A stretch of 64,000 nucleotides of DNA, from contig JANNBN010000129.1 of the NCBI GenBank assembly GCA_031385545.1, forward strand, positions 33,062-97,061. Reading direction: 5' to 3'. The number at the start of each line of letters is the position of its first letter. Position 1 is the first letter of the stretch. The notes below the pieces were generated by a model. That model made no database searches and was not told the DNA's origin. It worked only from the letters and a program-made list of their open reading frames with translations. This document shows, piece by piece, positions 39,550-64,000 of this stretch. The translations under genes were made by a program, and so were the position numbers. This stretch comes from Acidimicrobiia bacterium. GTDB taxonomy: Bacteria; Actinomycetota; Acidimicrobiia; Acidimicrobiales; JANYDT01.

Positions 39550-39596
39550 GGCCCGAAATCGTAGGCGAGAGAGGTACCCCCCGATGCTGGGGGAAA

Positions 39597-39629
39597 TCCA
39601 CCTCCGTTCGAGACTTGGAGGTGGACTAC
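39597..39629 (-). terminator. Hairpin with U-tract (minus-strand sense) in the HAD-TauE intergenic region
   Basis: The minus-strand RNA reads UCCACCUCC-AAGUCUCGAAC-GGAGGUGGA followed by UUUCCCCC. A second small hairpin CCCCC-AGCAUC-GGGGG follows. It could be a terminator or a 5' leader structure of the TauE gene. Confidence 0.4.
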
Positions 39630-39863
39630 CGCATTGCGTTCAGACCATTCGCTTTGCATTGCTGTTCGCGTGCGTCAGCCAGGTGCTGCTTGCACCGCTC
39701 ATCGGGCTCATCCCGATCCATTGGGGTGATCTGGATGGGCGTTCTCTCCGATGCGGTTTCGATCCACGTGGCGCTGACTACGGCTGTATCGGTCGCAGTG
39801 CTTGTGTTCGCGCTTTTCCGTTGCACTGCAGCGGCCACGCTGGCGCTCGCTCGGTCTCGCTGA

Positions 39864-51157: not shown

Positions 51158-51294
51158 CGACGGCGAGAGAGGCTGCCCTCAACCATCGGGGTATTCCGTC
51201 TCCGAATCATGCTGCGAGGCGTTCTCCCGCACGGAACCAGAAAGCCCACTCTGAGTGGTGTTTCAGTGTTGTTCGTCATCTATACTGATGACCC

Positions 51295-52875
51295 ATGGCG
51301 TGGAATCGGGCGAAGCGGACTGCAATTTGTTTTTCCCTGGCAACGGCCATCGGGCTGCTGCCAGTGTTGGCGCTGGTTCGTCCGGGTGGAGCCGCTGTCC
51401 AGCTGGCTATCCGTGCCCCAGGTTCGGCCGTTGTGGCTGTCCCAGTGAAGATCGATGTCCGGGGCCTGTTGGGAGGCGCAGATGTGCGACTGATCGAGGG
51501 TACCGAAGTGCTGGCGAAAGCCACTGCCCCGCGGTCTGGACGACTTCAATTCAGTGTGACTTTTGGTGCTCCGGGTCGGACCGTGCTTTCAGTGTTGGAA
51601 TCCCTTGCAGGTCGCCGCACGACCCGCGTTGTTGTGCACGCGTTCGACGTGATCGAAACGTCGCCCCCGGCGGTGCCAAACTCGGCCCCCGTCACGGTGG
51701 CAATCGTCGTATCCGCAACAGCGGTCCCGGCCGTCCCTGCCACCGCTCCGACAAGCGCACCCGTTTCCGTCTCTGGTAGTTCCGCCGCCGCTGGAATCTG
51801 GTTCGGCAACCCGTCGACCTACCAGGGCTCGTTGACGCAGGCGTCAAGCGCCGAGAGCAGCACAACAACGACGGTGCCGAACACGACGGTGCCGAACACG
51901 ACGGTGCCGACGACGGTGCCCGTCACGACTGTGGCACCCACCACGCTTGGGCCACCGTCGACCCCGGTGACCTCGACCGCTGCCACGACGCGCCCCGCTC
52001 CGACGGCTCCGACCACGACTCTCACCACAACGACCGGCCTCACGACGACGACCGGTCTCACGACGACGACCGATCTCGCAACAACCACCGTTCGTGCGAC
52101 AACGCGCGCAACCACCCTGGCCAGCACCACGACCGAGGCCAGCGTGGCGCCAACGACGGTCACGCCGACAACGCAATCGCCGCGCCCAACCACAACCATC
52201 GCCGCCGACTGTGCCGTCAGAGTGTGGCCGCTCGGTGATTCGTTAACCGTCGGCGGCTACGGCGACCGCACGGGCTTCACGGACTCGTATCGATACGAGC
52301 TCTACCGACAGCTCGCTGCGACGGGGCAGAACATCGCCTTCCGCGGCCACATCGGAGCACCCGGCTCACCGTTGCGATGGGGTGCGGTTCCCCCCGCCGG
52401 CGTCACGGATGAATTCTCGCATTCCGGCGTTGGCGGGTACAGCGTCGCCAACATGCTGCTCGACGTCGCTGCCTTTTCCAACGGCGTCCGCCCCGATGTG
52501 ATCGTGCTCAACATCGGAACCAACGGCGGTACCCCTCAGGAATTCAGGCAGTTGGTCACGCGGATCCAGCAGTTGGCACCCGCCGCCGACATCGTGATGG
52601 GGACCCTGACCCCGCTTGCGTCCGAGTTGGCACTTCGTCGGGTAGTCGATCCAGAGCGCGCGGCCTTGAACGCAGCCATTCGCGCGATCGGAGTTGAATC
52701 CGCTTCTGATCGGCTGTTCACCGCCGATGTCACCGATCGCCTGTTCAACCAGCAGGCGATGAGAGCGAGCGACTACTGGGACGGCACACACCTCGAGGCG
52801 TCGGGGGGCATGAAGTTCGCCCGGGCGCTCTATCCCGAGGTCGCACAACGAGTGGCCCAGGCAAGGCGCTGCTGA
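51295..52875 (+). CDS. Secreted protein: N-terminal beta-rich domain, Thr/Pro-rich linker, C-terminal SGNH/GDSL hydrolase
   Basis: Signal peptide MAWNRAKRTAICFSLATAIGLLPVLALVRPGGA. SGNH blocks: VWPLGDSLTVGG (block I), HSGVGGY (II), LNIGTNG (III), DGTHL (V). Confidence 0.8.
   Translation: MAWNRAKRTAICFSLATAIGLLPVLALVRPGGAAVQLAIRAPGSAVVAVPVKIDVRGLLGGADVRLIEGTEVLAKATAPRSGRLQFSVTFGAPGRTVLSVLESLAGRRTTRVVVHAFDVIETSPPAVPNSAPVTVAIVVSATAVPAVPATAPTSAPVSVSGSSAAAGIWFGNPSTYQGSLTQASSAESSTTTTVPNTTVPNTTVPTTVPVTTVAPTTLGPPSTPVTSTAATTRPAPTAPTTTLTTTTGLTTTTGLTTTTDLATTTVRATTRATTLASTTTEASVAPTTVTPTTQSPRPTTTIAADCAVRVWPLGDSLTVGGYGDRTGFTDSYRYELYRQLAATGQNIAFRGHIGAPGSPLRWGAVPPAGVTDEFSHSGVGGYSVANMLLDVAAFSNGVRPDVIVLNIGTNGGTPQEFRQLVTRIQQLAPAADIVMGTLTPLASELALRRVVDPERAALNAAIRAIGVESASDRLFTADVTDRLFNQQAMRASDYWDGTHLEASGGMKFARALYPEVAQRVAQARRC
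51868..52198. repeat. Low-complexity Thr/Pro/Val linker with nested 15-bp and 18-bp tandem repeats
   Basis: ACGACGGTGCCGAAC x3 from 51868 (TVPN TVPN TVP). An 18-bp unit ACGACGACCGGYCTCACG x3 around 52027-52080 (TTTGLTTTTGLTTTTDL). Confidence 0.8.
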
Positions 52876-52896
52876 CGTCGGCTTGTCTGCGGCCAG

Positions 52897-54447
52897 CTAC
52901 GAGATTGCCGGAGCGGATTCCCCGACGAACTGCACCCGGAGTTCGCGTTTCAGAACCTTCCCGGTTGCGTTGCGCGGCAGCGCGTCGACGATGGCGATGT
53001 CGTTGGGTACCTTGAACTTTGCCAACCGTGACACACAATGCTCAACCACAGTCGACCGGTCCAGCAGCTGACCTGGCTTCAGCACCAGTACTGCCAGACC
53101 CACCTCGCCCCACTTGTCGTTCGGAACGCCGATGACCGCAGCGTCTGCCACGGCGGGAATCTGGAACAGCACGTTCTCGACCTCAGCGGGGTAGACGTTC
53201 TCCCCGCCCGAGATGTACATGTCTTTCCATCTGTCGACGATGTAGATGAAGCCCTCGTCGTCGAGCTTCGCTGCGTCGCCGGTCTTCAGCCATCCGTCGT
53301 GGAAGCTGCTTGCCGTTGCCTCGGGCTTGTTCCAATAGCCCGGTGTGATGTTGGGTCCCTTCGTCCATAACTCACCGACCTCGCCCGGGCCGCAGTCGGT
53401 GCCGTCCTCCCCCACGATGCGTACTCCGGTGTGCAGGAGCGGCTTGCCTGCCGAGCCGATCTTGCGGAGCGCGTCGGCAGGGTCCAGCATCGTGACACCG
53501 GGGCTGGTTTCGGTCATGCCGTACCCCTGAACGATTTCGACGCCACGGCCGGCCCACGTCTCAATGATTGCGAGCGCGCACGGAGCGCCGCCGACTCCGG
53601 CCACACGGAGTCGCGACAAATCGGCCGTTTCGAAATCGGGGTGTTGCATCATGAACTGATACGGGGCCGGTACAGCGAAGAAGTGCGTGACGCCGTACGC
53701 CGGGTCGCTGATGACGCGCAACGCTTCGCCGGGGTCGAACGCTTGCGCGATGATGACTGTGCCGCCGGCATGCAAAACCGGGTTGGAGTAACAGTTGAGG
53801 CCACCTGTGTGGAAAAGCGGGAGCACACTCAGGTGCACGGTGTCCGGCGAGATACGCGCCGGGATGCCCAGGTTGATGCAGTTCCAGAAGGTCATACCGT
53901 GGGTGATGAGCGCACCCTTCGGATGGCCCGTGGTCCCTGAGGTGTACATGATCGCCCAGGGGTCGTCGTGGGTGAGCGGGGTTCGAGGGAAGGGCGATCC
54001 ATCGTGCGCCGCGATGGCCTGTTCAAAGGGATTGTCCTCGCCCGCCGCCTGATCGATGCACAGCAACTGCGTGATATCGCACAACAGCCGAAGCTGGTTC
54101 GCCATATCGGCCAGCGTCGAATCGTGGATCATGAAACGCGGGGTGGAGTCGTTGCAGATGTATTCAAGCTCCGGAACGGTGAGCCGCCAGTTGAGCAGCA
54201 CCGCAATGGCCCCGATCCGCCCACACGCGAACTGTGCTTCCAAATACTCGTTGCCGTTGCGAGCCAATACGGCCACCCGGTCGCCTTTGGTTACGCCCCT
54301 CGCTTTGAGATACGCCGCGAGACCATCTGTGCGCCTATGAACATCGGCGTAGGTGAGCCGCCGTCCGGTGCCAAGGTCGATGACGGCCAGCTTGCTGGGC
54401 CGAAGGTCGTTGTGATGCTGGATCCAGTCGAAGACGGCAACGGTCAT
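52897..54447 (-). CDS. Long-chain-fatty-acid--CoA ligase / AMP-dependent synthetase
   Basis: YTSGTTGHPKGA, ...YGMTETSP..., TGDAAKLDDEGFIYIVDRWKDMYISGGENVYP and terminal ...GKVLKREL. ATG 54447 preferred over TTG 54483. Confidence 0.9.
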   Translation of the reverse strand: MTVAVFDWIQHHNDLRPSKLAVIDLGTGRRLTYADVHRRTDGLAAYLKARGVTKGDRVAVLARNGNEYLEAQFACGRIGAIAVLLNWRLTVPELEYICNDSTPRFMIHDSTLADMANQLRLLCDITQLLCIDQAAGEDNPFEQAIAAHDGSPFPRTPLTHDDPWAIMYTSGTTGHPKGALITHGMTFWNCINLGIPARISPDTVHLSVLPLFHTGGLNCYSNPVLHAGGTVIIAQAFDPGEALRVISDPAYGVTHFFAVPAPYQFMMQHPDFETADLSRLRVAGVGGAPCALAIIETWAGRGVEIVQGYGMTETSPGVTMLDPADALRKIGSAGKPLLHTGVRIVGEDGTDCGPGEVGELWTKGPNITPGYWNKPEATASSFHDGWLKTGDAAKLDDEGFIYIVDRWKDMYISGGENVYPAEVENVLFQIPAVADAAVIGVPNDKWGEVGLAVLVLKPGQLLDRSTVVEHCVSRLAKFKVPNDIAIVDALPRNATGKVLKRELRVQFVGESAPAIS

Positions 54448-54509
54448 GCCGCCAGCTTGCCCGGTCCGATCGGAACCGTCCAACGGAGGTGGCCGTCGGG
54501 ACCGCTGGG

Positions 54510-56387
54510 TCAGGTTCCCAAGGACGCCAGCGGTAGTTCGAACCAGCGAAGGTGTTCGAACGCGGGGGACAACGAGCCGGTGGTCAGCGCCTCTTCGACC
54601 CAGGCCGGGGCGGCTGCGAATCGGCTGCGGGCTTCGTCGAGGTACCCCCGAAGCGCTGACTCGGGTGCATGCACACGCGCCACCGCGGGCCGAACCAGAT
54701 TGCCGGTTTTCGCGTCGTAGGACAGATCTGACAGCCGAAGTGGCGGCTCGATCGGGCCCCTCTGGTGACGCCAGAGGCCGGTCGCCGGGTTGAAGCGGTA
54801 CTCAGGAAGCAACTTCCATCCATGTTCTGCCACCAGGTTGACCGCGTCGACCAGGTAGGAGAACACCGTCTCGGAGATGAAGTAGTTGAAGCTCACCCGG
54901 GTCCAGCCAGGTTTGATGCCTTCACAGCCGTGTGTGATTTCGCTCTCGAACTCGTGCGAACGCGCGATGTCGATGCCCAGTAGGCGGTGGCCGTACGGAC
55001 CTGCACAGGAGCAACCACCCCGGGACTGGATGCCGAAGAGGTCGTTGAGCAGCGCCACCACGAAGTTGTGATGAAGGTAACGGTTGCCCGGGTTCGACCG
55101 GTCCGGAGCGCTACCTCCATTCAGCGCCGGCCGGCGAACGACGAACGACACGATCGACAGGCGCTCCGAGATGGTGTTGCCCAGCACCTGCATGGCTGGG
55201 TTTTTGAGCCAGGCCGCGACCGCACGCTGCCAGTACGCCTCTTCGTGGGCGCGGATGGTTGGGACACCGACGGACTGCTTGAGCTGGAAAACGAGCCCGG
55301 CCCGGATCGATTCGACGATGGCCGGTGTGCCTCCCTCCTCGCGATGAACCGGGTCATCGAGGTAACGATGCTCCAACGGGTTGACATAGGCAACCGTGCC
55401 GCCGCCGACGAGATGTGGGACCCGGTTGCGCAGGTGTTCCCGACGGACGACCAGGACCCCGGGCGTTCCCGGCCCGCCGACGAACTTATGCGGGCTGAGA
55501 AAAGCGGCGTCTTTGTACGCCAGCGGATGTGCAGCACACGTGGGATACATCTCTATGTCTACATAGGGTGCTGCTGCTGCGAAGTCCCACAGCGAAAGCG
55601 CTCCGTGTCGATGCAGGAGGTCGGCGATGGCGCAGGTGTTGGAGACGATGCCGGTGACGTTGGACGCGGCAGAGAACGAACCGATCTTGAGTGGCCGTGC
55701 AGAGTAGGCAACGAGCTGGGTGTCGAGGGCGTCGAGGTCGATGTGTCCGTCGGCATCCTCGGGAATCACCACGACGTCGGCGATCGATTCGCGCCAGGGG
55801 AGTTCGTTGGTGTGATGCTCGAAGGGCCCGACGAACACGACCGGCCGCTCATCGGCGGGGATCTGCGCTGACAGGTTGTAGCGGTCATCAAGGTCGGCGG
55901 GGATGCGCAGGTTCATGATGCCGATCAACCGATCGACGGCACTGGTTGCACCGGACCCGGCGAAGATCACACAGACCTCGTCATCACCGGGTCCAATGGG
56001 TTGCTCCACCTCGGGTTCAACTCCGATCCCTCCGTTCACCGCTCGGCCGCGCCCAACCACGGCGCTGTGGATGATTCGCCGCGCGTCTTCGCGCAGGCGG
56101 GTGGTCTGCAAGCCGGTACCAGACGACTCGGTGTGGGTGTTGGCGTAACGCGGCAGGACCTCTTCGCGGATGTAGTCCTCGATGAACGACAGGGAGCGAC
56201 CGGAGGCCGTGTAATCGGCGTACGTGATCCGACGCGGACCATACGGGCCGTCCATAACCAGGTCGTCGCCGATGACCGATTCCCGGATGCGGGCAAGCAA
56301 TGGTGTGTCGGGCGGTGAGGCATCGGGTGCGGTCTGCACCAGCCGCTCGTGGTGCCCTGCGGTGGGCTGATTGGTTGTCTGGCTCAT
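54510..56387 (-). CDS. Large (~625 aa) class-V aminotransferase-fold PLP enzyme (NifS/cysteine-desulfurase-like) with C-terminal extension
   Basis: RBS GGAG before ATG 56387. ...ITYADYTASGRSL..., ...YANTHTESSGTG..., ...VIFAGSGATSAVDRL..., ...FLSPHKFVGGPGTPGVLV... (PLP-Lys region). Carries the 59-nt in-frame element at codons 112-131. Confidence 0.75.
   Translation of the reverse strand: MSQTTNQPTAGHHERLVQTAPDASPPDTPLLARIRESVIGDDLVMDGPYGPRRITYADYTASGRSLSFIEDYIREEVLPRYANTHTESSGTGLQTTRLREDARRIIHSAVVGRGRAVNGGIGVEPEVEQPIGPGDDEVCVIFAGSGATSAVDRLIGIMNLRIPADLDDRYNLSAQIPADERPVVFVGPFEHHTNELPWRESIADVVVIPEDADGHIDLDALDTQLVAYSARPLKIGSFSAASNVTGIVSNTCAIADLLHRHGALSLWDFAAAAPYVDIEMYPTCAAHPLAYKDAAFLSPHKFVGGPGTPGVLVVRREHLRNRVPHLVGGGTVAYVNPLEHRYLDDPVHREEGGTPAIVESIRAGLVFQLKQSVGVPTIRAHEEAYWQRAVAAWLKNPAMQVLGNTISERLSIVSFVVRRPALNGGSAPDRSNPGNRYLHHNFVVALLNDLFGIQSRGGCSCAGPYGHRLLGIDIARSHEFESEITHGCEGIKPGWTRVSFNYFISETVFSYLVDAVNLVAEHGWKLLPEYRFNPATGLWRHQRGPIEPPLRLSDLSYDAKTGNLVRPAVARVHAPESALRGYLDEARSRFAAAPAWVEEALTTGSLSPAFEHLRWFELPLASLGT
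55996..56054 (-). repeat. 59-nt element, copy B (in frame inside the class-V PLP enzyme gene)
   Basis: The reverse complement GGGCGCGGCCGAGCGGTGAACGGAGGGATCGGAGTTGAACCCGAGGTGGAGCAACCCAT is 53/59 identical to 57779..57837. Encodes GRGRAVNGGIGVEPEVEQPI. Confidence 0.9.
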
Positions 56388-56535
56388 GCGTTGCTCCGGC
56401 ACCCGTTCGATATCGGTCAGCCTCGCATGGAACCGAAGTGTTGCAGACCCAAACTCGGCGCTGTCGGCTCGTTCAGGTGTCATGTTTTGGTCATAAACGC
56501 GCAGAAAGTGACACCTGAACTCCTGGCCCAGGGTG

Positions 56536-57708
56536 CTACAGCTTTGCGAACAGGCGGGCTGCTTGTTCGCTGGCTTTGGCCCGTACCTCGTGGGGATCAA
56601 CAGTGATTGCCCGACCCTCGTCCAGCAGCACTGTGCCGTCGGCCCGGACCACTCGCCGAGCGCGGACACCCGGTGAGAACGCAATGTGCCATGCCTCTAC
56701 CGGGTCGTAGTTCCAGGTCACCGTGTCGGTCTTTGCTTCGGGCATGAGATCCCATCCGTTCTCAAGCCAACTCCACACGGTGTCTGGGGTCTGCCGAACA
56801 TCGCTCTCTCGCAAGCGCGCATAGGAAAGCCGAAACTCTTCCAGCATGTCTGCGCCGATGCCATCTGTTCCGAGCACGATGCGATTGGGTCGGGTGGCTG
56901 GCGCCGCGTAACCGACTGCGTTGTTCATGTTGGACCGTGCGTTGTGGGCGATGGTGCCCGGCAGGTCTCGGTCGAGGTGCACGCAATGAACAAGAAGCCA
57001 GTCGTCTTGAGCAAGGCTTTCAAGACGCGCACCGGCATCGGCGTCACCGGCGCCTTCGGAGACGTGAACGTGGACGCCCACCCCGAGGCGAGACGCCATG
57101 TCGGCAGCGGCTTCGAGTGTTTCGGTAGAACACGTGAACGCTGCGTGGATGCCGACCATGCCGTGTCCACCGGCTTTGATGAAGCGTTCGTTCTCGGCCA
57201 ACCCTCGCCGGGCAGCGTCGGTCATGCGAGCTGGCCTGGTGGCCGAAGATGCGGAGGGTTGGCCCTCCACGGCGATGAGGCCCGATGACGTGTGCCGGTC
57301 TGTGACGCCGTAGGTTGTGAGGACACGAACCCCCACCTCGGCGCATGCTTGTGCGATGACGTCAAGGCTTCCCTCGATGGCGTTGGGGCTCTCGTGATGG
57401 TCGATGATGGCCGTGGTGCCGCACTCCAGCGCTTCCAACGCACCGAGCATGGCTGACCAGCGAATCATCTCCAAGTCGAGGGCGCAGTCCAGCCGCCACC
57501 ACACCTGTTCCAAGATCTCTCCGAAGCCGGTTGTCGACCTCGGCGGTGCAGGCATACCGCGCGCGAGTGCGGAATACAGGTGGTGATGCCCGCAGACAAG
57601 GCCCGGAGTTGTTGCGCTCACGACTGCGAGGCTAGCGGGCACGGCGAACTGTGCGATGTCTGAACACGGTGGGTCAAGATGAACTGTGACCACGACCCGC
57701 GACCTCAC
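56536..57708 (-). CDS. SsnA-like amidohydrolase (chlorohydrolase/aminohydrolase superfamily)
   Basis: PGLVCGHHHLYSALARG, VWWRLDCALD, IIDHHESP and AHNARSNMNNAVGY...LGTDGIGADMLEE closely parallel E. coli SsnA motifs as I remember them. The N-terminus looks shortened. The GTG start at 57708 (or 57693) overlaps the divergent DSD1 start. Confidence 0.75.
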   Translation of the reverse strand: MRSRVVVTVHLDPPCSDIAQFAVPASLAVVSATTPGLVCGHHHLYSALARGMPAPPRSTTGFGEILEQVWWRLDCALDLEMIRWSAMLGALEALECGTTAIIDHHESPNAIEGSLDVIAQACAEVGVRVLTTYGVTDRHTSSGLIAVEGQPSASSATRPARMTDAARRGLAENERFIKAGGHGMVGIHAAFTCSTETLEAAADMASRLGVGVHVHVSEGAGDADAGARLESLAQDDWLLVHCVHLDRDLPGTIAHNARSNMNNAVGYAAPATRPNRIVLGTDGIGADMLEEFRLSYARLRESDVRQTPDTVWSWLENGWDLMPEAKTDTVTWNYDPVEAWHIAFSPGVRARRVVRADGTVLLDEGRAITVDPHEVRAKASEQAARLFAKL

Positions 57709-58780
57709 GACGCCTGCCCTGCTGCTCGATCATGGCGCCTTTCAACACAACTTGGCACTAATGGCGGAGCGGTTCCCCGGGCGTGGCCGAGTGGTGAGCG
57801 GAGGGATCGGAGCCGAACCTGAGGTGGAGCAACCCATGAGGAACGGAGCACGCCTGCGGCCGCACGTGAAGGCACACAAAAGCACGTCGATCGGCCGTGC
57901 GCAGGTCGCCGTTGGTCACCACAGTTTTACCTGCGCGACGGTTCGCGAAATGGAAGGCATGGCGGGGGTAGGGCTCGGCGAGGACCTGCTCCTCGCGAAC
58001 GAGGTCGCCGACGCACGTCGGCTCGGTGTTCTGGTCGAGGGAGGCGCGCGGGTCACGCTGGCAGTCGACTCCGACGAGACGATCCGGGCGGCGAGCGGGG
58101 GAGGTGTCCGCGAGGTGGTGATCGACGTCAACGTGGGCCTCCCGAGGTGCGGGTGCGAACCAGACGATGCCGGACGACTCGCGGACCTCGCCCGGTCTGC
58201 GGGCCTGACGGTTCGTGGCGTGATGGGCTACGAGGGTCACCTGATGATGGTGCCTGCTGAGGAGCAGCGGGCGAAGGTTGAGCATGCAATGTCGCTATTG
58301 CTGGCCGCGCACGCACAGGTGGGTGGCGACTTGGTCTCGGCAGGTGGCACCGGCACGCATCTGGTCAACACATGGGCGAACGAGATCCAGGCCGGTTCCT
58401 ATGCGCTGCTCGACTCGCAGTACGCGAAGCTCGGCCAGGGTTTCCGTCAGGCGCTCTGGGTCGAGGCCACTGTGATCTCGGTCAACCGCGGCAGCGGGTT
58501 CGCGGTCGCTGACGCCGGTCTCAAGGCATTCGGGATGGATCACGGGAACCCGGCGGTTCCCGGTGCCGATGTGTGGTTCTGCTCCGACGAGCACATCACC
58601 TTCCGGCTCCACCCCGACGGTCCACTTCGCGGGGTCGGTGTCGGCGATCGTGTGCGTGTCGTCCCTGCTCATTGCGATCCGACGGTTGCCTACCACGATG
58701 CATATTCGCTGATCGCCGATGCGGCGGCGATGGATTGCGAAGTTCTCGACCGATGGGCTGTCGATCTGCGCGGTTGGTGA
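57686..58780 (+). CDS. DSD1-family PLP enzyme (D-serine dehydratase / D-threonine aldolase-like, alanine-racemase N-domain fold)
   Basis: TPALLLDHGAFQHNL..., LRPHVKAHKS (PLP lysine motif), ...GYEGHL..., ...DEHITF....RVVPAHCDPTV. Carries the 59-nt in-frame element at codons 32-51. Confidence 0.75.
   Translation: MTTTRDLTTPALLLDHGAFQHNLALMAERFPGRGRVVSGGIGAEPEVEQPMRNGARLRPHVKAHKSTSIGRAQVAVGHHSFTCATVREMEGMAGVGLGEDLLLANEVADARRLGVLVEGGARVTLAVDSDETIRAASGGGVREVVIDVNVGLPRCGCEPDDAGRLADLARSAGLTVRGVMGYEGHLMMVPAEEQRAKVEHAMSLLLAAHAQVGGDLVSAGGTGTHLVNTWANEIQAGSYALLDSQYAKLGQGFRQALWVEATVISVNRGSGFAVADAGLKAFGMDHGNPAVPGADVWFCSDEHITFRLHPDGPLRGVGVGDRVRVVPAHCDPTVAYHDAYSLIADAAAMDCEVLDRWAVDLRGW
57779..57837 (+). repeat. 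59-nt element, copy A (in frame inside the DSD1 PLP enzyme gene)
   Basis: GGGCGTGGCCGAGTGGTGAGCGGAGGGATCGGAGCCGAACCTGAGGTGGAGCAACCCAT. Encodes GRGRVVSGGIGAEPEVEQPM. It is an inverted repeat of 55996..56054. Confidence 0.9.
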
Positions 58781-58807
58781 AGGCAGCCAGACCTGTGAAC
58801 ATGGGCC

Positions 58808-59410
58808 GTGGCTGTTTTCCCCGACTTCGTCAAGTCTTTCGACGCTGCGTACTACTCGCGGTTCTACGACCACGCGAAGGTGCACGATCAGGCGCGGCTG
58901 GATTCGCTGATCACCGGCCTGCTGGGCTTTGCCCGGTGGTGGCAATTGCCGGTCCGGTCGGTCCTCGACGTGGGTGCAGGGACCGGAGGGATTGGTCGGG
59001 CGCTTGCCGCACATCACCCGGGCATCCGGTATCGAGGAACCGAGATCAGCCCGCATGCTTGCAAGACATACGGGCACAAGTTGGTGGACATCACCGAGTG
59101 GGTTCCGAAGCGCGCATATGATCTGACGGTCTGCCTGTCCGTTCTGCAGTACCTCGACGAGGAGCAGTGCACCGCAGCCGTTTCCAACCTGGCGGCGGCA
59201 ACGAAATCGCTGCTCTATCTCGAGGTGACGACGTCCTGGGACCGGACACACGCTGTCGATCCGGCGCATACCGACATGAACGTTTTCTGGCGAACTGGTG
59301 CCTGGTATCGGCGCGTTCTCCAACCCCACTTTCGTCTGGTCGGTGCTGGCATGTGGGTGCCGAACGGGGCACCCGTGGTGCTGTTCGACCTGGAGGCTGC
59401 TCGCCCGTGA
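58808..59410 (+). CDS. Class I SAM-dependent methyltransferase
   Basis: Motif I VLDVGAGTGGIG, then ...YDLTVCLSVLQYL.... GTG start. Confidence 0.75.
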   Translation: MAVFPDFVKSFDAAYYSRFYDHAKVHDQARLDSLITGLLGFARWWQLPVRSVLDVGAGTGGIGRALAAHHPGIRYRGTEISPHACKTYGHKLVDITEWVPKRAYDLTVCLSVLQYLDEEQCTAAVSNLAAATKSLLYLEVTTSWDRTHAVDPAHTDMNVFWRTGAWYRRVLQPHFRLVGAGMWVPNGAPVVLFDLEAARP

Positions 59411-60400
59411 TCAGACAACTGACCAGGGATGTCCCGGTGGCAAGGGCGCAGGCTCCACGACGCCCTTCTGCGCGGTGATGATGCCGTAGTGCTGCGGCTC
59501 GCGGTAGCGGCTCATCTGGAACAGCGTGTGCTTGAACTTGAAGCACAGATCCAGGTCGGCGTCGGCAACGATGACTTCGTCGCCGGTCGTCAGTGCACGT
59601 GCGACGATCTGCCCCGACGGTGCGTAGATGGCTGACTGGCAGAGCGACTCGACACCTTCTTCGTTCCCGCCCTTTGCCACCCCGACGACCCACGTACCGT
59701 TCTGGTACGCACCTGACTGCATGCAGATGTCGTTGTGGAACCCCTGCAGGCTGTTCTGCGCCGGATCAGGCGCATAGTGGATTGGTGTGTTGTAGCCGAT
59801 GCCGATGAGCTCGACGCCTTGCAAGCCCATTACCCGGTATGTCTCCGGCCAGCGCCGGTCGTTGCAGGTTGCCATGCCGACGATGCAGCCGAACGCCCGG
59901 TGCACTCCGAAGCCGTCGGGACCCGATTCGAAGTAGTAGCGCTCAAGATGCTGGAACGGTCGGTGCGGTTCGTGGGTCTCGTGCCCGGGGATGTGAACCT
60001 TGCGATACCGGCCGACAACCTGCCCGTCACGTTCGACGCAGATGGTGGTGTTGTACCGGTGCCGGGTACCGTCTGACGCGACATGCAGCTCGCCATATCC
60101 GATCATGAACCCGACTCCCAGCCGTTTTGCTTCGTCGAACAGCGGCTGTGTGACCGGCGACGGCATCGACGTTTCGAACCATGACTCGATGAAGGCTGGG
60201 TCTTCGGACCACCAACGAGGGAAGAATGTGGTGAGCGCCAACTCCGGGAACACCACAAGCTGCGCTCCCCGGCTGGATGCGTTACGAAGCATCACAATGA
60301 GACGTTCAACAACATCAGCGCGCGTATGGTCGTTCTGTACGGGACCCATCTGTGCCCCGGCGACCGTGAGTACGCGCGGCGCCCTGTGTGGCGAATTCAT
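59411..60400 (-). CDS. Carbon-nitrogen hydrolase family protein, N-carbamoyl-D-amino-acid hydrolase-like
   Basis: Nitrilase-superfamily triad context: ...LVVFPELALTTFFPRWW (Glu), ...YRKVHIPG (Lys), ...IVGMATCNDRRWPE (Cys). Its stop abuts the convergent methyltransferase stop (TGATCA). Confidence 0.8.
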   Translation of the reverse strand: MNSPHRAPRVLTVAGAQMGPVQNDHTRADVVERLIVMLRNASSRGAQLVVFPELALTTFFPRWWSEDPAFIESWFETSMPSPVTQPLFDEAKRLGVGFMIGYGELHVASDGTRHRYNTTICVERDGQVVGRYRKVHIPGHETHEPHRPFQHLERYYFESGPDGFGVHRAFGCIVGMATCNDRRWPETYRVMGLQGVELIGIGYNTPIHYAPDPAQNSLQGFHNDICMQSGAYQNGTWVVGVAKGGNEEGVESLCQSAIYAPSGQIVARALTTGDEVIVADADLDLCFKFKHTLFQMSRYREPQHYGIITAQKGVVEPAPLPPGHPWSVV

Positions 60401-61647
60401 CCGAGTACGTCCGTTTCGCTGAGGGTGAGCATGACAGTGGCGAGGATATCGGCGCCCATCACCAGGTCTGCTGGTTCAGTGAACTCGGCCGGGTTGTGGC
60501 TGATTCCGTTGTGGCTCTGCGTGAAGATCATCGCGGTGGGGCACATTCGCGCAAACATCTGAGCGTCGTGGCCGGCTCCCGACGGAAGTCGTTTCACGGT
60601 GTTGCCCATGTCGATTGCTGTGCGTTCGATGAGCGAGATCATCTTCCCGTCGAACGAGACCGGTTCGAATCTGGCGAGCGTCCTCGAGGTGATCGTGACC
60701 CCTTCCTCGCCGGCAACCGCGATAACGAAGGCTGCGAGCCTGCGTTCGGAATCCTGCAACAGTGTCTCGTCCGTGTTGCGAAGGTCGACAGTCATGACAG
60801 CGGAGGCGGCAACGACGTTGATCAGGTTTGGGTGCAGTTTGATCTGGCCAACGGTGCCCACATGCGGGTGGCCGATAGACAATGCAAGTTCGCGTACGAA
60901 TACGGCGATGCGGGCAGCCACATACCCGGGGTCGTGGCGCAATGACATCGGCGTGGTCCCTGCGTGGTTCGACTGGCCGGTGATAGTGAGTTCCTGCCAC
61001 GAGATTCCTTGCACTCCCGTGACAGCGCCGATGCGGAAGTCTTCGGCCTCCAGCACCGGGCCTTGTTCGATGTGCAGTTCGACGAATGCATAAGGCGCGG
61101 GGCCGGGGCACGGGGCTGTGCCGAGGTATCCGATGCGGGTGAGTTCGTCGCCGACCCGGGTGCCGTCGATCCCGATCACGTCGTGGGCCTCTTCCGCGGT
61201 CAGACCGCCGCAGTACACCAGGCTGCCCATCATGTCGGGGTTGTACCTGGCACCCTCTTCGTTGGTGAAGTAGCCCACGGCGATGGGCCGGTTGGTCGGC
61301 GTGTCGGTTTCTTGCAACCGCTCGATCACTTCCAGCGCTGCCAGCACCCCCAGGTTGCCGTCGTACAGGCCCCCGGTGCGGACCGTGTCGATGTGACTGC
61401 CGCTCATGACCGGACGATCGATGTTTCCGTTGCTGTCGGGACGGATGCCGATCACGTTGCCGATCGTGTCGATGGTGACGTGCAGACCGAGATCGATCAT
61501 CCAGGTCTTGACCAGGTCACGTCCTGACCGGTCTTCGTCGGTCAGGGCGAGCCGAGCCGACCCGGGCTCGCCGTTCGGCCCCTCGATGGCCCCGATCTGG
61601 CCCAGCTCACTCAGGCGCTCCAGCAATCTGACTCCGTTGACCTTCAC
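60397..61647 (-). CDS. M20-family Zn amidohydrolase (allantoate amidohydrolase / N-carbamoyl-L-amino-acid hydrolase type)
   Basis: ...DTIGNVIGIRP..., MSGSHIDTVRTGGLYDGNLGV, ...FTNEEGARY..., ...SGAGHDAQ.... ATGA overlap with the carbamoylase gene. GTG start. Confidence 0.85.
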   Translation of the reverse strand: MKVNGVRLLERLSELGQIGAIEGPNGEPGSARLALTDEDRSGRDLVKTWMIDLGLHVTIDTIGNVIGIRPDSNGNIDRPVMSGSHIDTVRTGGLYDGNLGVLAALEVIERLQETDTPTNRPIAVGYFTNEEGARYNPDMMGSLVYCGGLTAEEAHDVIGIDGTRVGDELTRIGYLGTAPCPGPAPYAFVELHIEQGPVLEAEDFRIGAVTGVQGISWQELTITGQSNHAGTTPMSLRHDPGYVAARIAVFVRELALSIGHPHVGTVGQIKLHPNLINVVAASAVMTVDLRNTDETLLQDSERRLAAFVIAVAGEEGVTITSRTLARFEPVSFDGKMISLIERTAIDMGNTVKRLPSGAGHDAQMFARMCPTAMIFTQSHNGISHNPAEFTEPADLVMGADILATVMLTLSETDVLG

Positions 61648-61745
61648 GGTTCCGAGGGTAGTTGAGGGCAGCCCGGAACCAATGGCCAGCTTGCTTTCTC
61701 AGGCGACCAACCCTCGATTTGACCCCCCCGAATCGGGCCGAGAAC

Positions 61746-61779
61746 GCAACGTTGGTTGCAGACGAGGCAACGTTGGCGA
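61746..61779. promoter_or_regulatory. Two CAACGTTG-core motif copies 21 bp apart in the M20-hydrolase/fdhD divergent region
   Basis: GCAACGTTGGTTGCA at 61746-61760 is the reverse complement of the TGCAACCAACGT repeat at 2606. GCAACGTTGGCGA lies at 61767-61779. Confidence 0.6.
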
Positions 61780-61836
61780 CTCTTCGCGCTGCTCGATCGA
61801 TGGGCGCGTTCGCGGTGGCGGGTAGGTTGGCGGGCG

Positions 61837-62661
61837 ATGCGAAAGGCCACGACACCGGTGAAAGTCACGGTTGTAACCGCGGCCGGGTCGACCATCAGAC
61901 CCGACAAGCTTGCGACCGAAGAGCCTTTGTCCATCCGGGGCGGTGGTCCCGGGCAGGACAGTGTCGACGTGTCGGTCACCATGCGTACGCCCGGGCACGA
62001 CTTCGAGTTGGCGATCGGCTTCTTGTGGTCCGAGGGGATGATCACTCGCCCCGATCAGGTTCGTGAGGTGAAGTTCTGCGACGTGCCGGACGGTGAGGAA
62101 CAGCTCTACAACATCGTCACCGTTCGCACCTCGCACCAGGTGGACGTGCGGCCCCGTGCGTTCACGACCAACTCGTCGTGCGGTGTGTGTGGCACGCAAA
62201 CCCTGGACGACCTTGCTTCCTGCACGGTGCCGATACCGTTGAATGCTGCTGTCCGGGTCAATGCGGCGGCTTTGCTGCAGGTTCCCGCAGCGCTCCGTTC
62301 ACGACAGAAGGTGTTCGCGGCAACCGGCGGTATCCACGCCGCGGCCATCCTTGACCAGGACTGCACGGTGCTGTTCTCGCGGGAGGACGTCGGGCGTCAC
62401 AACGCAGTCGACAAGGTCGTCGGCCGAATGGTTCTCGACGGGCGAGTCCCCGCGAACGACCGAATTTTGTTCGTGTCCGGCCGTACCTCGTACGAAATCG
62501 TGCAGAAGGCTGCTGTGGCTGGGCTCCCCATCGTGGCAGGGGTCAGCGCCCCGTCCAGTTTGGCCGTGGAAACGGCGCAGCGGATGGGCATTACCCTTGC
62601 TGGTTTCGTGCGTGGTGAGTCGATGAACGTGTACACCCACCCGCATCGCATCGTCGTGTAG
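61837..62661 (+). CDS. fdhD: Formate dehydrogenase accessory sulfurtransferase FdhD
   Basis: ...EEPLSIR...TMRTPGHDFELAIGFLWSEG..., catalytic loop SSCGVCG, ...ATGGIHAAA..., ...FVSGRTSYEIVQKAAVAGLPIVAGVSAPSSLAV.... Start at ATG 61837. Confidence 0.88.
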   Translation: MRKATTPVKVTVVTAAGSTIRPDKLATEEPLSIRGGGPGQDSVDVSVTMRTPGHDFELAIGFLWSEGMITRPDQVREVKFCDVPDGEEQLYNIVTVRTSHQVDVRPRAFTTNSSCGVCGTQTLDDLASCTVPIPLNAAVRVNAAALLQVPAALRSRQKVFAATGGIHAAAILDQDCTVLFSREDVGRHNAVDKVVGRMVLDGRVPANDRILFVSGRTSYEIVQKAAVAGLPIVAGVSAPSSLAVETAQRMGITLAGFVRGESMNVYTHPHRIVV

Positions 62662-62707
62662 CGAACGGATGCGCTCTCAGTCGCTGTCACGCGACGCACT
62701 GCCGTGT

Positions 62708-62746
62708 GGCAGAACACCTCGAACATGCGGTGCGAGGTGTTCTGCC
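62708..62746. terminator. 14-bp-stem hairpin between the convergent fdhD and cupredoxin genes (bidirectional terminator candidate)
   Basis: GGCAGAACACCTCG - AACATGCGGTG - CGAGGTGTTCTGCC. Confidence 0.55.
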
Positions 62747-62771
62747 TTCAGCGGCTGGCGCAGCCTCTCTC

Positions 62772-63161
62772 CTACCTGGTGACTTTGACGTCGCCTGCCA
62801 TGCCTGGGTGCAAGGTGCACTTGTACTTGAACGTGCCTTCCTTGTCGAAGGTGGTGCTCCAGATGGTGCCCTTCTTGGCAAGCGTCTTGCTCTTACGGTT
62901 CTTGTCGAAGATCACGTTGTGAGCAACGGATTCGTCCCAGCGGAAGTCGACCCGCTGGTTGACCTTCACGGTGACCGACTTGGGCGAGAACCTGAGCGCC
63001 TTCATACTCACCAACACCGGCTTTGACCCTCCTAGGGACTGCGCTTCGGCCGGCGTGGGGACCGCGACACTGGCGCACCCGGTTGCAACTAGCAGGGCGA
63101 CGGCACCGATGCCGTTTCGGATGCGACGCGCGCGACCGGACTCGTTGTGTTTCGTGCTCAT
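62772..63161 (-). CDS. Cupredoxin (amicyanin/plastocyanin-like type-1 copper) lipoprotein
   Basis: RBS AGGGAG before ATG 63161. Lipobox LLVATGC. Type-1 Cu ligands in VAHNVIF (His) and YKCTLHPGM (Cys-x2-His-x2-Met). Confidence 0.82.
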   Translation of the reverse strand: MSTKHNESGRARRIRNGIGAVALLVATGCASVAVPTPAEAQSLGGSKPVLVSMKALRFSPKSVTVKVNQRVDFRWDESVAHNVIFDKNRKSKTLAKKGTIWSTTFDKEGTFKYKCTLHPGMAGDVKVTR

Positions 63162-63285
63162 GGCTCCCTTTTTAATGCGAGTGCCCCGCAACGCAAAGCG
63201 GCCCCCGCATCGGCGAGGGCCGTTTGTGACAAGGATCATGCTTGGACAGGCCGCTGAAGGGGCGCAGCCTGTCCGGACGATCTGG

Positions 63286-64000
63286 CTAGGCCAGCACGAG
63301 CCACAGAACCATCAGGACCAGTGCAAGCGGCGCTCCGATGTGAGCGATGTTCTTGTGCTGTGCCAACGGCTTGGTGAGAGGCCCTTCGAACCCGCCGATC
63401 ATTCCCAGTGCGCTGAGTTCGAGTACCACGGTGACGAGTATCACGATGACCCACAGCACGTTGACGCCGCCGGAGACTTCTCCTGCGAAGAAGTGGCTGG
63501 CACCGGTCATGAACATCATCATGGGGATGGACAGGATGGCGTTGGTGCGGCTGGCGAGCAGTGCCTTGCGTCCGGCCGAAGCTGCTGCAGGATCGGCAGC
63601 CTTGCCTTCCAAGAGCCCGCGAGCGTTGGCGATCACCTTCTGTTGGTTCGGCCAGATGACGAGCCACACGTTGCCCAGCATCAGGAGACCCATGACGGTA
63701 CCCATGTAGATGGCATGTCCGGTGCCGCCCGACGCTTTGCCGAAGGTGTACTGCGCTTCGTCGCCGCCCGTGTAGAGCCCGAGCATCACGATGCCCGTTG
63801 CTGCGGTGGCCAGTGCGGCAAACCGGAAGTACCACAGCGCCTGGGGGACCAGCTTGTCGATGGCGCCGTTACGGTGAGCGGCTTCCATCTTGGGGAACGA
63901 GGGAACCTGCACGAAGTTGAAGTAGTAGAGCAGGCCGATCCAGGCGATCCCGAAAAGGACGTGCCACCAGCGGAGGAACCAGTGGATTCCACCTTTGGAG
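63286..64000 (-). CDS. PuuD-like (urate-hydroxylase N-domain family) polytopic membrane protein, 5' end outside window
   Basis: The frame stays open to the window edge (hand translation of 63913-63999: ...GIHWFLRWWHVLFGIAWIGLLYYFNFVQVP...). The W-x-H...IAWIG pattern and about 6 TM segments resemble the PuuD membrane domain as I recall it. There is no cytochrome c domain at the C-terminus. Confidence 0.5.
   Translation of the reverse strand, partial: SKGGIHWFLRWWHVLFGIAWIGLLYYFNFVQVPSFPKMEAAHRNGAIDKLVPQALWYFRFAALATAATGIVMLGLYTGGDEAQYTFGKASGGTGHAIYMGTVMGLLMLGNVWLVIWPNQQKVIANARGLLEGKAADPAAASAGRKALLASRTNAILSIPMMMFMTGASHFFAGEVSGGVNVLWVIVILVTVVLELSALGMIGGFEGPLTKPLAQHKNIAHIGAPLALVLMVLWLVLA

Follow-up and report, generated by a model that had tools for sequence, protein, structure and literature searches.

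Among the small repeats described in bacteria, Rickettsia palindromic elements (Ogata et al. 2000, in PMC10969869 and PMC3184786) are characterised, in the passages devoted to them, as palindromic sequences of about 105-150 bp. MIRUs (Supply et al. 1997, in PMC3184786) lie between genes within operons according to the passage that treats them, where their small ORFs overlap the stop and start codons of the neighbours, and the same passage gives them imperfect inverted repeats. MITEs and REP-type elements (ERIC, RUP, BOX, Correia and REPIN) are short, transposase-less and multi-copy, with occasional in-frame ORF fusions (PMC3184786).

The window analysed here, a stretch of 64,000 nt from an Acidimicrobiia genome, holds a 59-nt pair that belongs to a dispersed, previously undescribed 66-bp repeat of a few Acidimicrobiia genomes. 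The closest analogues appear to be Rickettsia palindromic elements with respect to in-frame insertion and MIRUs with respect to size and tandem arrays. Like the Rickettsia elements, the repeat is small, dispersed and lineage-specific, a large share of its copies sit in frame in unrelated housekeeping genes, and the conserved peptide that it adds is tolerated by the host proteins. It differs in its 66-bp unit with neither hairpin nor inverted ends, in its intragenic head-to-tail arrays and insertion in both orientations, in its free-living Acidimicrobiia host rather than an obligate intracellular alphaproteobacterium, and in that near-identical genomes have been found to differ in one of its insertions. 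The likeness to MIRUs, which is one of description, extends to occurrence in Actinomycetota, a unit of 40-100 bp, some tens of loci in each genome, tandem arrays of varying copy number and open frames through the unit; the corresponding values here are a 66-nt unit, 88 sites and arrays of 1-6 units. Although some Acidimicrobiia copies are likewise intergenic, they are often intragenic (the two in the window and no fewer than 17 others), occur in both orientations and lack inverted repeats. With MITE and REP-type elements the repeat has in common that it is short and multi-copy, codes for no transposase and is at times in frame in host ORFs. Their defining terminal inverted repeats or stem-loop are missing, however, and the Acidimicrobiia element instead has a fixed 5' boundary and a variable 3' end with partial restart of the unit.

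Two copies in divergent PLP-enzyme genes

The source genome was surveyed for copies solely through the 64-kb window, in which an IUPAC 59-mer has two exact matches (none in 100 shuffles). A repeat finder run on the same window returned the arms 55996-56054 and 57779-57837, each of 59 nt, 90% complementary and 1724 nt apart. Recomputation reproduced what the initial annotation had reported of this pair: its length, the identity at 53 of 59 positions with all six differences being transitions, the inverted arrangement, the shared codon phase and the encoded peptides, GRGRAVNGGIGVEPEVEQPIGP in the aminotransferase and GRGRVVSGGIGAEPEVEQPMRN in the dehydratase-like protein. In either case the starting point is codon position 1 of the host ORF (phase 0): the aminotransferase copy begins with codon 112, numbered from MSQTT, and the dehydratase-like copy with codon 32. 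Their inverted arrangement on the chromosome results only from divergent transcription of the host genes, each of which carries its copy in sense orientation. The 59 nt, which the annotation had taken for the whole inserted element, proved to be its conserved core, whereas the unit inserted in both genes measures 66 nt (Table 1). The intervening segment, 56055-57778, contains the 5' ends of both genes and, as gene calls agree, the whole of the gene that the annotation had called ssnA-like. This Amidohydro_1 gene is a bystander outside the element, and the synteny around it is kept in relatives that have neither insertion.

Table 1. Features of the two insertion loci, in window coordinates
Feature	Coordinates	Strand	Details
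66-nt unit, recent copy	55989..56054	(-)	core 55996-56054, tail TGGACCC 55989-55995; in class-V aminotransferase-like gene
66-nt unit, older copy	57779..57844	(+)	core 57779-57837, tail GAGGAAC 57838-57844; in D-serine-dehydratase-like / D-threonine-aldolase-like gene
Host gene 1, class-V aminotransferase-fold PLP enzyme	54510..56387	(-)	625 aa from MSQTT; PF00266 in homologues
Host gene 2, Ala_racemase_N / D-ser_dehydrat PLP enzyme	57686..58780	(+)	364 aa; PF01168, PF14031
Amidohydro_1 (ssnA-like) gene	56536..57555	(-)	339 aa, PF01979, called on identical Logan contigs

Protein alignments bear out the impression that both segments are insertions relative to homologues. The 22 extra residues of the aminotransferase are missing from eight homologues, comprising seven others and the closest one, P0130, which is 99% identical over the aligned positions and 22 aa shorter. 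Those of the dehydratase-like protein, whose homologues bear the source names D-threonine aldolase or D-serine deaminase-like, are missing from 22 of 22 aligned homologues, including those with 79-84% identity. Structure prediction, which the annotation had proposed as a check on the 20-aa segment, was applied to the dehydratase-like protein: in the AF2 model the insert is predicted to be an unstructured loop between a helix and a strand (pLDDT <50), a low-confidence coil in an otherwise confident model. The AF2 model of the aminotransferase was built from nine sequences and has a mean pLDDT of 36, too low to speak for or against a loop there. A 15-aa insert in the aminotransferase of L006, considered as a possible decayed copy, shares just 11 identical nt with the element (E 0.44).

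A dispersed family of 66-nt units

A 22-nt core pattern has 112 exact matches at 72 loci, all within two related Acidimicrobiia genomes, and an nhmmer profile identifies 135 units in 88 sites, made up of 61 singles and arrays of 2-6. The hosts of matching copies are Acidimicrobiia MAGs. With more than 100 further copies elsewhere, the case of a pair with no further copies, which the initial annotation had held against mobility, falls away. The unit consists of a highly conserved 59-nt core, GGGCGCGGCCGAGYGGTGARCGGAGGGATCGGAGTTGAACCCGAGGTGGAGCAACCCAT, followed by a variable 7-nt tail (consensus CAGACAC). Arrays run head-to-tail, with up to six units, and contain array-specific variants, which shows that they grow in place; after entry, copies have often been amplified locally into such arrays. 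Conservation extends over the full 66-nt period, both inside an array and from one array to another, and leaves no part for unique spacers. A CRISPR array was therefore rejected as an identity for these loci. Repeat boundaries were also seen to break short-read assemblies.

Searches of JGI metagenome contigs (two patterns), IMG/VR viral contigs, PLSDB plasmids and INPHARED phages returned no match. A profile of the insert peptide, which is carried by protein P0001, matched nine entries of a representative protein library and revealed a GSDR... variant subfamily. This search says little about the spread of the peptide, since insert-bearing proteins stand behind insert-free cluster representatives.

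Pfam supports the host gene at no fewer than 17 intragenic sites, which include both orientations and have domains on both sides of the insert or across it. Hosts of sense-orientation copies include sarcosine-oxidase-like, DEAD/DUF3516 helicase, peptidase M16, AMP-binding, WD40, EamA, CobW, PALP, CotH and ADH proteins, and those of antisense copies NRPS-like, SpoIID, ATP-dependent DNA ligase, GT2, DSHCT helicase and TRAM/U5-methyltransferase proteins. Forward frame 1 and reverse frames 1 and 2 of the unit are open, and TGA occurs in forward frames 2 and 3. Forward frame 1 is thus the only stop-free forward frame, which accounts for the codon phase shared by the two window copies. Long ORFs span 23 of the 34 periods of 66 nt, as against 3 of 13 periods of 62-65 or 67 nt. 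Because 66 bp equal 22 codons, insertions that fall in a stop-free phase and in a tolerant surface loop or linker do not disrupt the protein and are retained. For this reason two unrelated PLP enzymes share one peptide in one codon phase.

Taken as a whole, the repeat is very probably a small, non-autonomous, DNA-level element of a narrow Acidimicrobiia clade. The suggestion of a small in-frame repeat element made in the initial annotation finds strong support in a dispersed multi-copy family, many unrelated host genes and polymorphism at 99% identity.

Entry sites, ends and age of insertions

Contig L082, which is 99.3% identical to the window locus, has the dehydratase-like copy in identical form and lacks the aminotransferase copy. 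At the latter site, the empty sequence GCCGTGGGT^GGTGATGAC in L082 is filled here by exactly 66 additional nt, the empty allele reading GCCGTGGGTGGTGATGAC. The filled junction occurs on two Logan contigs, and the dehydratase-like copy is identical in three Logan contigs as well as in L082. As its core agrees with the family consensus, drawn from copies of other genomes, at 59 of 59 positions, and as it is missing from a 99%-identical genome, the aminotransferase insertion is very recent. By the same kind of evidence the dehydratase-like insertion is the older, since it is common to the 99%-identical genome and missing from orthologues of 79-84% identity. The window copies are separate insertions, neither being derived from the other.

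A second empty and filled pair is provided by L022 versus L012 and L017. Of 56 sites, 51 have C at position -1 and 49-50 have GG after the tail. The final two tail nucleotides show covariation with the flank upstream (27 observed against 15.4 expected, p=4e-4). The entry site is C^GG, with a fixed 5' end and exactly 66 bp added. Junctions share (A/C)C|GG. The cleanest empty and filled pair, at the aminotransferase site, shares GG alone, accompanied by one adjacent G>T change, so that a true target-site duplication is at most a possibility. The 3' end of the unit is variable, and partial unit restarts of 3-18 nt follow many copies.

No terminal inverted repeats are present, the ends GGGCGCGG... 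and ...CCCATCAGACAC not being complementary. Alifold reveals no conserved secondary structure (-6.6 or -2.4 kcal/mol), single copies form no hairpin and fold worse than their own shuffles (z +1.2 to +1.7), and no Rfam family matches any of nine loci at the gathering threshold or the surroundings of the window copies at E<=1. A tRNA or tRNA-like origin was considered and dismissed: ARAGORN finds none at the sites, and D- and T-arm-like strings picked out by eye give no cloverleaf.

The new copy equals the consensus while old copies remain in place, which suggests spread by copy-and-paste from other genomic copies, presumably through a factor encoded elsewhere. Integration would rely on (A/C)C|GG, as a brief repeat or microhomology at the junction. 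Because the 3' end varies and is often followed by the beginning of a further, incomplete unit, copying is more likely to use a tandem or circular template than to be cut-and-paste by a transposase recognising inverted ends. A discrete element transcript, if any, would end ...CCGCGCCC. Partial restarts could instead be leftovers of array contraction and not a signature of integration. Neither an enzyme that mobilises the element nor an intermediate or a master copy came to light. A mobiliser among recurrent neighbours was considered and rejected: those that recur are SDRs and acyl-CoA dehydrogenases, which are widespread metabolic families, and DUF222-HNH genes, which at two loci are themselves interrupted by the element. 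A link to IS110 likewise finds no support: the L006 copy beside an IS110 transposase sits in the loop of a distinct palindromic repeat, which is also found element-free.

Other explanations and wider meaning

Two copies near each other and inverted, as many template-switch products are, and just two in a 64-kb window, are what would be expected if a segment had been copied once, by gene conversion or replication template switching, to the other gene 1.7 kb away. Such an event is nevertheless very improbable, as more than 100 copies with different flanks exist elsewhere (the differing flanks also exclude contamination of other assemblies by the window locus). The aminotransferase copy has the foreign consensus, the dehydratase-like core (53/59 to the consensus) is nearer to the L059 copy, at 56/59, than to its neighbour, at 53/59, and the insertions differ in age and in their tails, TGGACCC in the aminotransferase and GAGGAAC in the dehydratase-like gene. 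The local gene conversion offered in the initial annotation thus finds no support. The geometry would equally permit a functional intragenic inverton, in which a flip of 56055-57778 swaps the N-termini and promoters of both enzymes, with both frames remaining open. RecA-dependent recombination usually needs roughly 20-30 bp of identity; the longest unbroken identity between the two arms is 17 nt and therefore below the usual length. The flipped junction would read CATCACCGGGTCC-(59 nt)-GGGGAACCGCTCCGC. In a comparison of assemblies, only reference junctions occur in three Logan contigs and one NCBI contig, one of which is without an arm, so that four independent assemblies have the reference arrangement at the junctions covered and there is no evidence for the exchange of N-termini that the annotation had envisaged. 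Chimeras would, moreover, split the PLP-enzyme folds, the layout is already explained by two independent sense-strand insertions in divergent genes, and no recombinase is among the flanking gene calls or, in relatives of the window, among those over some 10 kb, in agreement with the absence of a nearby invertase from the annotation. We regard an inverton as scarcely credible.

Conservation of the repeat might alternatively be due to selection for some cellular role of its DNA or RNA, for instance as a protein-binding site or as a transcript-processing or structural signal. The core is identical in three species-level lineages and very highly conserved among genomes whose proteins are 80-87% identical, many copies either follow closely on a stop codon or occupy the loop of a terminator-like palindromic repeat, and the strand composition of the unit is biased (27 G, 6 T). 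This explanation is unlikely given that there is neither conserved secondary structure nor an Rfam match, that intragenic orientations are about equal in number, that presence and absence differ between 99%-identical genomes, and that frame-breaking length variants are tolerated outside genes. A module selected as protein, that is, a 22-residue peptide with a function of its own spreading among proteins, would account for the recurrence of the same peptide in many proteins, at times in 2-5 consecutive units. About half of the intragenic copies are antisense, however, and yield peptides unrelated to it, SDGLLHLGFNSDPSVHRSAAP or MGCSTSGSTPIPPFTARPRP. Non-coding copies, whose units measure 62-65 or 67 nt, are also numerous, and the peptide is predicted to be disordered, all of which leaves a protein module with very little to recommend it.

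The non-autonomous DNA-level element favoured here could, more speculatively, stand for a new class of mini-elements that is now active, has no inverted ends or hairpins, is copied from a template, integrates at C^GG through junction homology of a few bases and, by 22-codon insertions and their tandem growth, is a routine source of new loops and linkers in the housekeeping proteins of free-living Actinomycetota, a generalisation that we consider possible but rather doubtful. The template in such a class may be tandem or circular, single-stranded DNA or RNA-templated, with a fixed 5' start and a variable stop.

Selfish repeats that colonise housekeeping genes in frame have so far been essentially a Rickettsia curiosity, and the 2024 MITE review (PMC10969869), in its passage on the subject, still asks whether this occurs outside Rickettsia. 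The same outcome is now found in free-living, high-GC Acidimicrobiia, from an element of quite different anatomy. Its unusual features are intragenic tandem expansion and an exact empty and filled site between 99%-identical genomes, which make both the movement of the element and the uptake of 22-110 residues by proteins directly testable. For annotated enzymes of these bacteria, the repeat is a source of spurious-looking 'low-complexity' loops.

The two copies in the window and their host genes

A repeat search of the window returns a pair of inverted 59-nt arms, 90% complementary and separated by 1724 nt, one in the class-V aminotransferase-like gene and the other in the gene for a D-serine-dehydratase-like PLP enzyme. 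An IUPAC form of the 59-mer matches exactly these two places in the window and nothing in 100 shuffles. The pair therefore stands as the initial annotation described it: 53 of 59 positions are identical, the six differences are all transitions (three at codon position 2, three at codon position 3), and each copy starts at codon position 1 of its host ORF (codon 112 of the aminotransferase, codon 32 of the dehydratase-like gene). Similarity between the copies has a sharp 5' limit and is ambiguous across the 7 nt past the 59-mer. Neither a half-element search (up to 3 mismatches), short-word BLAST nor a profile of 66-nt units reveals a third copy in the window.

Both segments had been taken for insertions, which is confirmed by homologues that lack the 22 residues at each site. 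The residues GRGRVVSGGIGAEPEVEQPMRN of the dehydratase-like protein (PF01168 and PF14031) occur in none of 22 aligned homologues, including the closest (79-84% identity). In a structural model with a mean pLDDT of 87, the insert is predicted as coil (pLDDT <50) between helix 16-29 and strand 56-60. Among the aminotransferase homologues P0130 is nearest, with 99% identity where the two align and a length 22 residues below that of the window protein. Synteny (AMP-binding, Aminotran_5, Amidohydro_1, dehydratase-like, methyltransferase, CN_hydrolase and M20 peptidase genes) is kept in the related contigs L004, L006 and L007-L009. The aminotransferase genes of L004 and L007-L009 lack the segment, and that of L006 has a different 15-residue insert in the same loop. 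This in-frame insert, PNGRAAELAEPAAPV, has a 9-nt periodicity (CCGAACNGG), shares 11 nt with the element (CGGCCGAGCGG) and no more, and could be either a copy that has decayed or an unrelated product of slippage.

The near-identical contig L082, which encodes P0130 (GCA_043756315.1; 99.3% identity to the window over 56053-64000, 98.4% over 52809-55988), contains the dehydratase copy, identical to that of the window, and lacks the aminotransferase copy. Its empty site reads ...GCCGTGGGT^GGTGATGAC..., and the filled site of the window reads ...GCCGTGGtT[GGGCGCGG...CCCATTGGACCC]GGTGATGAC.... The two differ by exactly 66 nt, and a single G>T change lies beside the left junction. Since the site is also empty in relatives at 93%, 88% and 87% identity, which read AVG(G/A)(D/N).., a gain in the window lineage is the parsimonious reading, and the insertion is younger than the divergence of these 99%-identical genomes. 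The dehydratase insertion precedes that divergence and postdates the relatives at ~80% identity. The aminotransferase copy matches, at 59 of 59 positions, a consensus built from two other genomes. The dehydratase copy matches it at 53 of 59 and the copy in contig L059 at 56 of 59, and has T14/G20, a combination that 18 of 111 units show. Judged from these alignments, the two copies are independent and of different ages. Elsewhere in the window, a 1.58-kb stretch absent from the otherwise 94-99% identical L082 encodes the greater part of a 526-aa Thr/Pro-rich protein, GDSL-like towards its C-terminus; relatives have other genes at this position.

Coordinates of the element copies, their host genes and neighbouring features
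Feature	Contig	Position (strand)	Remark
Class-V aminotransferase-like gene	window	54510-56387 (-)	
Aminotransferase copy	window	55989-56054 (-)	59-nt arm 55996-56054
Amidohydro_1 gene	window	56536-57555 (-)	
Dehydratase-like gene	window	57686-58780 (+)	
Dehydratase copy	window	57779-57844 (+)	59-nt arm 57779-57837
Stretch absent from L082	window	51229-52808	
Thr/Pro-rich protein ORF	window	51295-52875	
Palindromic repeat (~75 nt)	window	~39558-39635	also L006, L027, L048, L052, L058, L060, L069, L076, L078, L082 and others
Insert in aminotransferase orthologue	L006	8400-8444	45 nt
IS110-family transposase gene	L006	14730-15815	
IS110-family transposase gene	L006	18209-19447	
DUF222-HNH gene	L012	3083-4585	
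DUF222-HNH gene	L033	1-615	
DUF222-HNH gene	L039	4985-5419	
DUF222-HNH gene	L045	503-1558	interrupted by element
DUF222-HNH gene	L055	3701-5002	interrupted by element

A dispersed family of 66-nt units

Two Logan contigs from separate SRA runs (L001 and L002) both end at window position 56025, where a 31-mer lies wholly within the element. Such branching of an assembly graph is a sign of a multi-copy repeat. The repeat breaks short-read assemblies at its boundary, and contigs L011, L015 and L018 of MAG Acidimicrobiia GFS_12196 start or end in arrays. A count of further copies had been proposed initially, and many were found: exact matches to a 22-nt pattern from the core (element positions 11-32), sought in one genome per species, number 112 at 72 loci and are confined to MAG Acidimicrobiales MFD04651.bin.1.175 (88 matches; source of L006) and GFS_12196 (24; source of L004). 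With a profile built from those units, 135 are detected at 88 places, of which 61 are singletons and the rest head-to-tail arrays of 2-6. The consensus is GGGCGCGGCCGAGCGGTGAACGGAGGGATCGGAGTTGAACCCGAGGTGGAGCAACCCAT plus a 7-nt tail, most commonly CAGACAC and next TGGGCGC, for a total of 66 nt. The 22-nt pattern and a second one had no match in JGI metagenome contigs, nor did the element in the IMG/VR, PLSDB plasmid and INPHARED phage collections. When 1.84 billion representative proteins were searched with a peptide profile, 9 matches came back in all. Among them, P0124 (477 aa) contains a diverged variant, GSDRVVNGGIGVE.EGE.PI, three times, at residues 44-65 (GSDRVVNGGIGVESEGEQPIRP and similar) and two further sites, which indicates a putative sister subfamily in another organism. 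A word-indexed protein search with a 40-aa peptide dimer returned no candidate, although the database's own P0001 contains the peptide, so negatives for such short Gly-rich queries are unreliable. In a subfamily present in L019, L033, L039 and L056 (all GFS_12196), CCCTCGGTTGAGC replaces CCCGAGGTGGAGC, and CCGAGG becomes its reverse complement, CCTCGG.

Junctions were compared at 56 independent sites. The base preceding the element is C in 51, the two bases past the tail are GG in 49-50, and position -4 is G in 27; the 5' boundary has a fixed place at C^GG. Covariation links the last 1-2 bases of the tail to the end of the upstream flank (27 two-base matches versus 15.4 expected; permutation, p=0.0004), also in the rare sites ending in T or A. 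The junction repeats are short. On the 3' side of many copies, singletons included, the unit partially restarts (GGGCGCGG..., 3-18 nt), and this restart shares rare variants with the 5' end of its own copy. A second empty/filled pair is provided by a 3-unit array of L022 at ...GCGAGCAC^GGTGGGAGGG..., a site uninterrupted in L012 and L017. Units of one array have private variants in common; arrays therefore expand where they are. Inverted ends are absent from the element, a single copy folds worse than shuffled sequence, an alignment of 86 distinct units yields essentially no consensus structure, and Rfam gives no match.

A second, palindromic repeat family of ~75 nt lies directly 3' of stop codons (GAGAGAGGTTGCCCCC-N6-GGGGGCAATCCACCTC-N11-13-GAGGTGGATTGCC), with two overlapping hairpins that look terminator-like. 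At least five loci have the 66-nt element inside its first loop, at slightly varying points. In MFD04651.bin.1.175 the syntenic region has two IS110-family transposase genes, one of which has its end 43 nt upstream of a palindromic repeat bearing the element. Genes for DUF222-HNH endonucleases, the family to which mycobacterial REP13E12 proteins belong, recur near element copies; this may be enrichment or simply a multi-copy host.

Copies inside genes and codon phase

Hosts were defined by the longest stop-to-stop ORF spanning each site, and 20 such ORFs were scanned against Pfam. Sense inserts encode GRGRxVNGGIGVEPEVEQPI.. and lie within or between Pfam domains, in a sarcosine-oxidase-alpha-like protein (inside Pyr_redox_2), a DEAD/DUF3516 helicase, a peptidase M16, an AMP-binding enzyme (at the hinge of the N- and C-domains), a WD40 protein, an EamA transporter, a CobW GTPase (2 units, linker), a PALP enzyme, a CotH protein (3 units) and a zinc alcohol dehydrogenase. 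Antisense inserts encode ..SDGLLHLGFNSDPSVHRSAAP, in an NRPS-like AMP-binding/PCP/TE protein (2 units, again at the hinge), SpoIID, an ATP-dependent DNA ligase (2 units), a GT2 glycosyltransferase (3 units), a DSHCT helicase (C-terminus) and a TRAM/U5-methyltransferase (2 units). Orientation in long spanning ORFs is unbiased (17 sense, 18 antisense).

Persistence in genes is confined to open frames. Other copies, with a unit length of 62-65 or 67 nt and no open frame, are intergenic. Array periods divisible by three (33 of 66 nt, one of 63) fall in ORFs of at least 300 codons in 23 of 34 cases, and other periods in 3 of 13. Of the forward frames of the consensus, frame 1 alone is open (GRGRAVNGGIGVEPEVEQPIRH), and reverse frames 1 and 2 are open too; three open frames of six is about chance for 66 nt of the same composition, as estimated from base frequencies. 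Because forward frames 2 and 3 each carry a TGA, a sense copy survives in a gene only in phase 0, and the shared codon phase of the window copies reflects survivorship, not phase targeting.

Origin and mode of spread

Two of the options initially raised did not hold up. Local gene conversion or template switching between the two host genes is contradicted by the dispersed family elsewhere, by the identity of the aminotransferase copy to the consensus of other genomes and by the unequal ages of the insertions. An invertible switch finds no support: four independent assemblies show reference junctions only, one of them without an arm, the longest perfect identity between the arms is 17 nt, and the resulting chimeras would divide both protein folds. 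That the 22-residue peptide is a selected protein module is contradicted by the antisense and non-coding copies. A cellular function at the DNA or RNA level is conceivable and would help account for the extreme conservation, but the lack of structure, the unbiased intragenic orientation and the polymorphism between near-identical genomes speak against it. The third initial proposal, a small mobile repeat, is borne out by the multi-copy, dispersed family together with one recent, precise 66-bp insertion, and the element very probably belongs to the general class of mobile, non-autonomous repeats tolerated in frame.

Spread would be by copy-and-paste, since the recent insertion is identical to the consensus and older ones persist across lineages; the WD40 insertion is common to L053 and L075. 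A mobilising factor would act in trans, and integration would use 2-4 bases of junction homology. The fixed start, variable end and restarts fit a tandem or circular template better than a transposase recognising two ends. The copied intermediate could be ssDNA or RNA-templated cDNA, which sequence alone does not separate, and any specific enzymology is at best a tentative proposal.

By outcome, the nearest known case is that of the Rickettsia palindromic elements, which are small and sit in frame within numerous unrelated genes (PMC10969869, PMC3184786), although the 66-nt element is not palindromic, differs in size and host, and forms arrays. MIRUs, to which it is likened by description, are alike in size, phylum, copy number and tandem variation (PMC3184786), and are described as intergenic within operons, with imperfect inverted repeats (PMC3184786). 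A MITE or REP is ruled out by the absence of inverted ends and stem-loop, and a CRISPR array by that of unique spacers. Open-access literature on intragenic or in-frame repeats in Acidimicrobiia or Actinobacteria yielded no description of the family. The element is a small interspersed repeat, tolerated in frame, whose anatomy fits none of the named classes, and the finding is a real one that goes beyond a two-copy curiosity.
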